A DNA stretch of 64,000 nucleotides from a virus (lineage: Duplodnaviria; Caudoviricetes). Under the pieces are notes generated by a model that worked only from the letters and a program-made list of their open reading frames with translations, ran no database searches and was not told the origin of the DNA. The first letter of the stretch is position 1. Every line of letters begins with the position of its first letter. This document shows positions 60,630-61,020 of this stretch, piece by piece. A program made the translations under genes and the position numbers. The stretch lies in the IMG/VR virus record IMGVR_UViG_3300020465_001196. One strand, written 5' to 3'.

Positions 60630-61020
60630 TAACAATAAGGCTAATAAAGGCTAATATCTACTAATATCAACTTACATAGCAACCTTACCTGATAGAAATA
60701 TCTCAGAAATGCGTCTTCATGATGGTGAATCTGATGTTGCGACTAAAGGCTAATATCTGCTAAATGATGAAGCTCTGTGAAAAAGATACAACTTCAGCTA
60801 AATGTGTAGTGCTAACTTACTTTATACATTTTAGTTCCGTTGGATGAGACGCAGTTGATGGGAGTAACGGCTAACCGCTTCCTTAGGACTGTAAAGTTAG
60901 AATGGCACGGCCTCGTATGATGTCAAAAATAACTCTTCCCGTAACAGGGTGAGTTATGACTGGTTCTGTATGATGACATACAATCATATATCAAAATGAT
61001 TTTATCTCTTAGGTAATGGT
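60630..61020 (+). ncRNA. Candidate large structured non-coding RNA
   Basis: The only long gene-free stretch in the window. It lies behind a strong promoter and contains at least eight complementary helix pairs plus repeated AAGGCTAATA. Confidence 0.55.

Follow-up and report, generated by a model that had tools for sequence, protein, structure and literature searches.

Positions 60630 to 61020 of a 64,000-nucleotide (nt) stretch of viral DNA (Duplodnaviria; Caudoviricetes; IMG/VR record IMGVR_UViG_3300020465_001196), which we call the window, had been predicted from the sequence of one strand to encode a large, promoter-driven phage RNA of a kind not yet described. We find that ~60632-60982 on the plus strand encodes a highly structured, free-standing non-coding RNA (ncRNA) of ~351 nt, and that the host lineage of this RNA family is a group of uncultured aquatic T4-like jumbo phages, kin of PA5oct, Atu_ph07 and Phosso. 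The prediction is supported on three counts: covariation is significant, no Rfam family matches, and the strand read from the base pairs agrees with the promoter. We consider it very probable that the RNA is functional, independently transcribed and the member of a new family. The best explanation as a whole, in which this new structured RNA also acts in trans and offers its repeated motif for docking, has in our estimate a probability of about 0.55.

Covariation, strand and promoter

Folded singly, the window sequence has an unexceptional energy (z -1.4 for the plus strand, -1.1 for the minus strand), so that the structural evidence comes from comparison and not from the window alone. Exact 20-22-mers of the element matched 9 IMG/VR contigs and a gapped pattern matched 28 metagenome contigs; the close set consists of 26 distinct full-length copies in two clades that are ~70% identical to each other (72% overall), an identity not above that of the flanking genes. 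A wider set of 80 IMG/VR loci was retrieved by aligning the protein of a nuclease gene near the element, at 97-40% identity. The full-length covariance model R1 matches 45 of the 72 loci outside the close clade, whereas the core model R2 matches 63 of the 80 loci, with one copy per locus and E-values from 1e-32 to 1e-4, which are rough since the calibrations of the covariance models were shortened. In the closest relative (L001/L007), the flanks are 91-93% identical and ~300 nt of the element carry zero substitutions; this near-identity proves little alone, because divergence between the two phages is mosaic and the baseplate-hub gene is equally conserved.

RNAalifold predicted 79 pairs from the 26 close copies. 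Over the 73 pairs counted in this set, pairing holds in 99.7% of cells; double changes occur at 13 pairs, where slid controls give 1-2, and the observed covariation score was reached by no shuffle. The signal is strong among 19 diverse members, where 93% of cells are paired, double changes occur in 54 of 81 pairs (13-18 in slid controls) and the covariation score is 0.51, with controls at or below 0.09; at least one double change is found in each helix, the sole exception being the two-pair apical helix of P4. This strong covariation is the outcome of the homologue collection from viromes that the original prediction had proposed as a check. Since the diverse alignment was fitted to the model, pairs were counted on a MAFFT core alignment as well. 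There, helices P2 and P3 are 95% paired with double changes in 10 of the 11 P3 pairs, and a pseudoknot between junction J3/4 and the loop of P4 is 97.7% paired with double changes in 3 of 5 pairs.

The same pairs tell the strand. Whereas 99.7% of the close-set cells pair when read as plus strand, only 84.8% do so when read as minus strand; the 273 G-U cells that break the minus-strand reading show that the RNA is the plus strand, which is also the direction of the promoter. As predicted, the region from 60630 to 61020 has no open reading frame (ORF) of 60 codons or more, its ORFs being of 27 and 26 amino acids (aa) on the plus strand and 34 aa on the minus strand. A protein-coding reading was rejected: in 13 of 28 copies, the sole recurrent ORF, that of 27 aa, has a frameshift or is left with 4-5 aa. 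Thus the element shows what is expected of a structured ncRNA gene in general, namely compensatory changes above controls, on one strand, and no conserved frame.

The evidence on transcription consists of a conserved predicted promoter and of a weakly matching PA5oct relative, described below, that was annotated from RNA-seq. The promoter (60596-60625, plus strand) is a near-consensus sigma-70-type sequence with TTGACA at 60596-60601, an 18-nt spacer and TATACT at 60620-60625, and it points against the local gene direction, as had been noticed before. Both hexamers are unchanged in 23 distinct homologues while the spacer is free to vary, and most of the more distant members are preceded, at the same distance, by a promoter of the form AAAAAGGTTGAC..N17..TAtAaT. 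We infer that transcription starts near 60632. At the other end, conservation across all relatives stops at 60982, the end of helix P6. It is followed by a weak hairpin, AAUCAU..AUGAUU and then UUUAU (60983-61006, plus strand), which may be a 3' end or terminator and is not kept in the closest relative; a terminator scan of 59500-62500 found none. Outside the RNA, a divergent promoter, TTGACT-N17-TATAGT (60549-60577, minus strand), serves the operon of the 106-aa, 60-aa and PD-(D/E)XK genes; its -35 and -10 blocks are kept in homologues, and relatives read TATACT. The two oppositely directed promoters make up a divergent control region, beyond which ~400 nt of the DNA are non-coding. Only one other exact TTGAC-N17-20-TATACT occurs in the 64 kilobases (kb) of the window (2128-2156, minus strand), so this promoter type is rare there.

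The RNA family lies outside every Rfam 15 family, including RNase P, transfer-messenger RNA (tmRNA), group I/II introns, 6S, GOLLD, ROOL, HEARO, OLE, IMES and riboswitches. At the gathering threshold Rfam 15 gave no match in the whole window or in 18 diverse relatives, and at E<=10 over 60300-61300 it gave merely chance fragments of C/D-box and CRISPR-DR models; a Rfam scan of the type-B copy gave no match either. ARAGORN found neither tRNA nor tmRNA. The suggested Rfam scan therefore came out as anticipated by the original prediction, in which no signature of tRNA, tmRNA, RNase P or group I/II introns had been recognised. We found no description of this RNA family in the literature. Searched by blastn, 50,697 cultured-phage records gave no match to four diverse members, two core patterns were absent from 185,579 prokaryote genomes in exact-pattern scans, and no second copy of the RNA was found within the window.

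Architecture of the RNA and its repeated motif

All parts of the RNA are given here on the plus strand. It begins with a single-stranded 5' tail (60632-60678) that contains two tandem AAGGCUAAUA units (60637-60646 and 60647-60656), with the motif GGCUAAUAUCU at 60649-60659. The tail leads to domain P1 (60679-60740), a three-way junction in which helix P1 (GCAAC 60679-60683 with GUUGC 60736-60740) stands with hairpin P1a (GAUA-GAAA-UAUC, 60691-60702), helix P1b (UCAGA 60703-60707 with UCUGA 60730-60734) and helix P1c (CGUC 60712-60715 with GAUG 60721-60724). In the 19 diverse members, double changes are seen in 4 of the 5 pairs of P1, 3 of 5 in P1b and 2 of 4 in P1c, and the inner part of the domain is shorter in some relatives. 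The linker between P1 and P2 (60741-60767) carries a third GGCUAAUAUCU copy (60748-60758) and is predicted by RNAalifold to pair with 60895-60906, forming a long-range helix that closes the P2-P3-P4 junction. The two segments of this helix are 97% and 86% paired in the diverse alignment, with double changes in 7 of 10 pairs, although it is less firmly supported than the other helices because that alignment was fitted to the model.

Within the junction, P2 (60768-60796) pairs UGAAG (60768-60772) with CUUCA (60792-60796) around the conserved loop GCUCUGUGAAAAAGAUACAA and covaries as GRRG/CYYC, and the P3 hairpin (60797-60835) pairs 60797-60809 with 60822-60835 around a 12-nt loop, UGCUAACUUACU. 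Junction J3/4 (60836-60850) reads UUCCGUUGGAUGAGAC and provides, in its GUUGG (60839-60843), the 5' strand of the pseudoknot; the 3' strand is CUAAC (60871-60875), located in the apical loop of P4. This pairing has four covarying variants across the family, which are GUUGG/CCAAC, GUCGU/ACGAC, GUCAG/CUGAC and GUAAC/GUUAC. P4 itself is a long hairpin (60851-60892) with an outer helix (GCAGUU 60851-60856 with GACUGU 60887-60892) and an inner one (GGGAGU 60860-60865 with GCUUCC 60877-60882). Junction J4/5 (60893-60908), AAAGUUAGAAUGGCAC, supplies the strand opposite the linker motif in the predicted long-range helix and is invariant in the close clade, part of it being fixed by the search pattern used. 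Domain P5 (60909-60965) is closed by GGCC (60909-60912) with GGUU (60962-60965) and shows the conserved strands CUCGUAUGAUG and UAUGACUG; it encloses the inner hairpin AUAACUC..CCC-GUAACA-GGG..GAGUUAU (60929-60957), with which a UAUGAU/GUUAUG pairing clashes in the window sequence. The terminal hairpin P6 (UGUAUG-AUGA-CAUACA, 60967-60982) has double changes in 5 of 5 pairs in the diverse alignment. Eight helices had been proposed from the sequence of the window, and six of them are kept and covary: GCAAC/GTTGC, GATA-GAAA-TATC, TGAAG/CTTCA, AAATGTGTA/TATACATTT, ATAACTC/GAGTTAT and TGTATG/CATACA. The other two, CCGTT/AACGG and CTAAC/GTTAG, are not conserved and give way to the GUUGG/CUAAC pseudoknot.

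A short unit, (Y/A)AGGC(A/U)A, is repeated throughout the family, with 2-7 copies per RNA. The 5' tails of relatives hold 2-4 copies spaced 10-13 nt apart, with A-rich tracts in some, and the RNA of the window holds three GGCUAAUA copies. AGGC reaches 11.4 per kb in the sense strand, whereas the antisense strand has 2.4 per kb and the flanks have 1.6 per kb, a 7-fold excess over background; GCUAA occurs 7 times in the element of the window, against 1.4 per kb across the window. As in sponge RNAs, the motif is thus present in multiple short single-stranded copies. Given that the linker motif is predicted to pair with J4/5, the two tail copies resemble spare copies of one strand of the long-range helix. 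A look for targets of the GGCUAAUAUCU motif or of its complement in the rest of the 64-kb window gave none.

Gene neighbourhood and relatives in PA5oct

The RNA gene lies in an interval without conserved ORF (60540-61022) that is flanked by minus-strand genes, and G+C at 60700-61000 is 38-40%, against ~30% in the surroundings. On one side are a 106-aa ORF (60237-60557, minus strand, probable ATG at 60539), the PD-(D/E)XK nuclease gene (59596-60093, minus strand; Pfam PDDEXK_15, PHROG 'RusA-like resolvase') and the baseplate-hub gene (58536-59384, plus strand). On the other are a 385-aa ORF (61023-62180, minus strand) and a gp46/SbcC-like gene (62155-63987, minus strand; PHROG 77, E 1.6e-105), whose product is ~50% identical in amino acids to those of the jumbo phages Phosso and PA5oct and ~45% to that of Atu_ph07. 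CheckV on related IMG/VR contigs implies a genome size of ~350 kb. The gene order of close relatives is fixed as hub, nuclease, small genes, RNA element, 382-385-aa gene and gp46. We describe the one conserved locus of the family as lying between the nuclease and baseplate-hub genes; the order in the window is hub, nuclease, small genes, RNA.

Across the wider set, the RNA is within ~1.4 kb of the nuclease gene in 63 of the 80 loci, and its side and orientation change. Its placement takes three forms: in the window it is divergent from the nuclease gene, and elsewhere it may also be upstream on the same strand or directly downstream, with 0-3 unrelated small genes in the interval. Such variety excludes a purely cis-regulatory role and is compatible with inherited synteny or with a functional link to the nuclease. 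The nuclease keeps E14, D61, E74 and K76 invariant. A PDB sequence search gave nothing informative for it, and the best fold matches of its structural model (pLDDT 81) are archaeal Hjc Holliday-junction resolvases, although they are weak (E ~0.02, TM 0.33-0.47). Judged from this model, it is probably the junction resolvase of the phage, standing in for T4 endonuclease VII.

The 385-aa protein, which adjoins gp46, gave no match in Pfam, PHROG, NCBIfam or by PDB sequence search, and relatives keep 62-89% identity to it (61023-62180, minus strand; L001 5144-6340; L008 7895-9088). In most relatives, the closest one included, a 397-aa radical-SAM/twitch-like gene separates the RNA from the 382-aa gene; it is missing from the window and present in L001 and L008, which makes it an indel polymorphism. 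Comparing 58249-61000 of the window with L001 shows a mosaic of divergence, with 0-4 differences per 100 nt in the hub gene and 5-30 per 100 nt in neighbouring genes, which suggests recent recombination among related phages. Between the RNA and the convergent radical-SAM gene, L008 (7848-7905) and the equivalent positions in L002-L010 have two adjacent perfect hairpins, which in L008 are UUGUUAAC-GAUA-GUUAACAA and UAACUGAC-GUA-GUCAGUUA. They are followed on the minus strand by a U-rich run and so resemble a terminator of the radical-SAM gene. Distant relatives retain AACUAACGC-GAA-GCGUUGUAC behind a G-free, CA-rich spacer.

At the equivalent position, the genomes of PA5oct and Phosso each contain a gene-poor gap of 1-1.5 kb. 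The full-length model R1 matched neither phage, and the core model R2 gave no match across Phosso and six with E<0.1 across the whole PA5oct genome (NC_071039.1). Three mutually similar PA5oct elements, at 13117-13277, 76337-76513 and 246384-246533, share AAAGGAUG-NN-GCUCUGGU.GAAA, the P3 hairpin and UUCCGG, and their P2 covaries (UGAAG/CUUCA, UGUUG/CAACA and UGAUG/CAUCA); they are without P4 and the pseudoknot. The first lies inside a 911-nt gene-free gap, the second in the syntenic gap adjoining the RusA-like/PDDEXK gene gp342, and the third within ncRNA004, an RNA-seq-defined 'putative lncRNA' at 246116-246734 of NC_071039.1 (Lood et al., 2020; PMC7318152). Like the present RNA, ncRNA004 has AAAGGAUG..GCUCUGG..GAAA, a covarying P2, the P3 hairpin and UUCCGG, and it is the sole relative with transcript evidence; unlike it, ncRNA004 has neither P4 nor the pseudoknot, bears a further hairpin in the P2 loop, is one of three copies and matches with 18 bits. 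The three PA5oct elements, which score 17-26 bits, are probably remote, reduced relatives of the family.

Rfam gave no match in the PA5oct gap. A consensus PA5oct promoter, TTGACA-N17-TATAAT (L049 10150-10178), is directed into a stretch of ~1.3 kb whose annotated ORFs have only 38-50 aa (NC_071039.1, 75650-77180), and the tiny ORFs gp338-gp341 may be misannotated RNA. In Phosso (PV764938.1; L050 12410-13425), a 1-kb gene-free gap between a resolvase gene and an RNase HI gene lacks the present family and has a sub-threshold match to EGFOA (29 bits against a gathering threshold of 37.7, E 0.005).

Possible functions of the RNA

Among the possible mechanisms, we rank first one in which the RNA binds or scaffolds a partner in trans, because its motif is single-stranded and repeated, its promoter is strong and of early type, and its position does not depend on orientation; taken by itself, this mechanism is tentative and we would not be surprised to see it fail. 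Host RNA polymerase would transcribe the RNA early in infection. The RNA would then act in trans and not on a neighbouring mRNA, as is argued for by its varying placement, which is divergent from the nuclease gene in some phages and upstream or downstream of it in others. Its repeated motifs would give a protein or RNA partner several places to dock, and would thereby titrate or scaffold it, and the invariant pseudoknotted core may be a module for specific recognition or positioning. CsrB/RsmZ, with their GGA motifs, CrcZ, with A-rich motifs, and 6S RNA are likewise trans-encoded with a strong promoter of their own, and CsrB, RsmZ and CrcZ also carry several short single-stranded motif copies that vary in number and spacing among relatives while the motif is kept. 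They differ in that the motif here is AGGC(A/U)A, not A(N)GGA or AANAANAA, with repeats outside hairpin loops, and in that these RNAs, 6S included, lack the large invariant pseudoknotted core.

Several points weigh against this explanation. The motif fits no known protein-binding consensus, having GGC where CsrA takes GGA and not resembling the AANAANAA of Hfq/Crc, and one of the three copies in the window is probably base-paired rather than free. The pseudoknotted core exceeds the needs of a simple sponge and would suit a ribozyme or self-assembling RNA too. The comparative evidence has its own biases: collection by exact patterns inflates the apparent invariance at 60841-60850 and 60893-60904, and alignments derived from a covariance model lean to the structure of that model. 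In general, close homologues came from exact patterns and distant ones via the nuclease gene, so that both invariance and linkage are partly ascertained. Finally, the PA5oct matches are weak (13-26 bits), and scores of this size do not prove homology.

Two known classes of RNA were also considered and rejected. For a type III antitoxin of the ToxI kind, the repeats are 10-11 nt motifs inside a complex fold and not tandem units, and the neighbouring nuclease is Hjc-like and here divergent. For a guide or omega-RNA of IscB, TnpB or Cas, scans of the neighbours with Pfam, PHROG and NCBIfam show no such gene, finding PDDEXK_15, small proteins without assignment, the 385-aa protein and the SbcC-like gp46.

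An unlikely alternative, though one to be taken seriously, is a catalytic or self-assembling RNA, whose core would be the active site of a ribozyme or the unit from which an RNA-only multimer is built, as in ROOL, GOLLD or OLE; in the self-assembly version, the spare copies of the long-range-helix strand would mediate strand exchange between molecules. It would account for the invariance of 35 of 40 unpaired positions in J3/4, P4 and J4/5 and for the combination of a pseudoknot with a multi-helix junction, and the strand pairing with J4/5 recurs almost unchanged in the two GGCUAAUAUCU copies of the tail. The RNA is phage-borne and its size class is near that of known ornate RNAs (bioRxiv 10.1101/2024.12.08.627333). 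Like GOLLD, ROOL and other large ornate RNAs, it is large, has its own transcription, many helices, a pseudoknot and highly conserved unpaired nucleotides, and, as for GOLLD and ROOL, it was discovered solely by comparing environmental sequences. However, it matches no known ribozyme or ornate-RNA model, those of GOLLD and ROOL included; it is ~350 nt long against their 580-800 and sits at a fixed syntenic locus of aquatic T4-like jumbo phages. Complementarity between the tail motif and J4/5 is absent from the more distant clades, a conserved self-complementary loop was not found, and the invariance is partly due to how the sequences were collected. We give clearly less credit to the RNA as a partner or regulator of the Hjc-like nuclease, either a branched decoy keeping the resolvase inactive early or an RNA subunit of it. 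The closeness to the nuclease gene despite changing side and orientation speaks for it, as do the direct adjacency of the two in L077, L070, L078 and L110, the invariant nuclease residues with their Hjc fold matches, and the PA5oct syntenic copy beside gp342. Yet gp46, nuclease, RNA and hub form one syntenic block, in which adjacency may reflect an inherited order of genes; 1-3 unrelated genes intervene in many phages, the window included; the loci were gathered via the nuclease gene, which makes the association partly one of design; two PA5oct copies are far from any such gene; and the fold matches are weak.

Lower still we place a cis role, as leader, untranslated region or antisense RNA, in which the element would be a riboswitch-like sensor for the nuclease operon or a readthrough transcript into the convergent 385-aa/gp46 operon. 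The RNA is indeed on the same strand and directly upstream of the nuclease gene in L078, L079 and L072 and directly downstream in L110 and L117, and the window has no convincing terminator between it and the convergent 385-aa gene. But it is transcribed away from the nuclease gene in the window and many relatives, no plus-strand gene follows it in the window, its convergent neighbour differs (the radical-SAM gene of L001 and L008 is absent from the window), and one fold is found in three arrangements. The least probable reading, to which we attach very little weight, is the primer or R-loop transcript of a replication origin that the original prediction had offered as its other option, of the T4 oriF/oriG or ColE1 RNA II type. 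Those transcripts are, like this one, promoter-driven, non-coding and beside replication or recombination genes; here a strong promoter is directed into a gene-free region, the Phosso RNase HI gene adjoins a gene-free gap at the same position, and ColE1 RNA II likewise requires a defined fold. The suggested GC-skew check, however, shows no inflection at the site and leaves the origin without support; there is no G-rich R-loop segment, conserved antisense RNA or conserved antisense promoter, and selection acts on the base pairs and pseudoknot of an elaborate RNA fold. The 3' flank of the fold would be transcribed into CA-rich RNA free of G, an unfavourable composition for a stable R-loop. The element also flips orientation among relatives while the orientation of surrounding genes is unchanged, and the Phosso gap is without a homologue of the RNA.

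The RNA has been kept among jumbo phages in which the identity of neighbouring proteins has fallen to 40-45%. Large, intricate RNAs with strong covariation are rare, and earlier finds have often been ribozymes, riboswitches, components of ribonucleoproteins or RNA-only assemblies. It is rather improbable, though less so than any one of the alternatives just weighed, that either the RNA and the Hjc-like enzyme form a functional pair, as a junction mimic timing the resolvase or a subunit directing it, or the core is a new ribozyme or self-assembling RNA. If true, either would amount to RNA-based control of a new type among T4-like jumbo phages. Experiments are possible through the probable reduced relatives in PA5oct, a Pseudomonas phage that is in culture and has been studied genetically. 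The finding adds an RNA gene to a conserved block of these genomes, in which such gaps are now annotated as empty or as tiny hypothetical ORFs.

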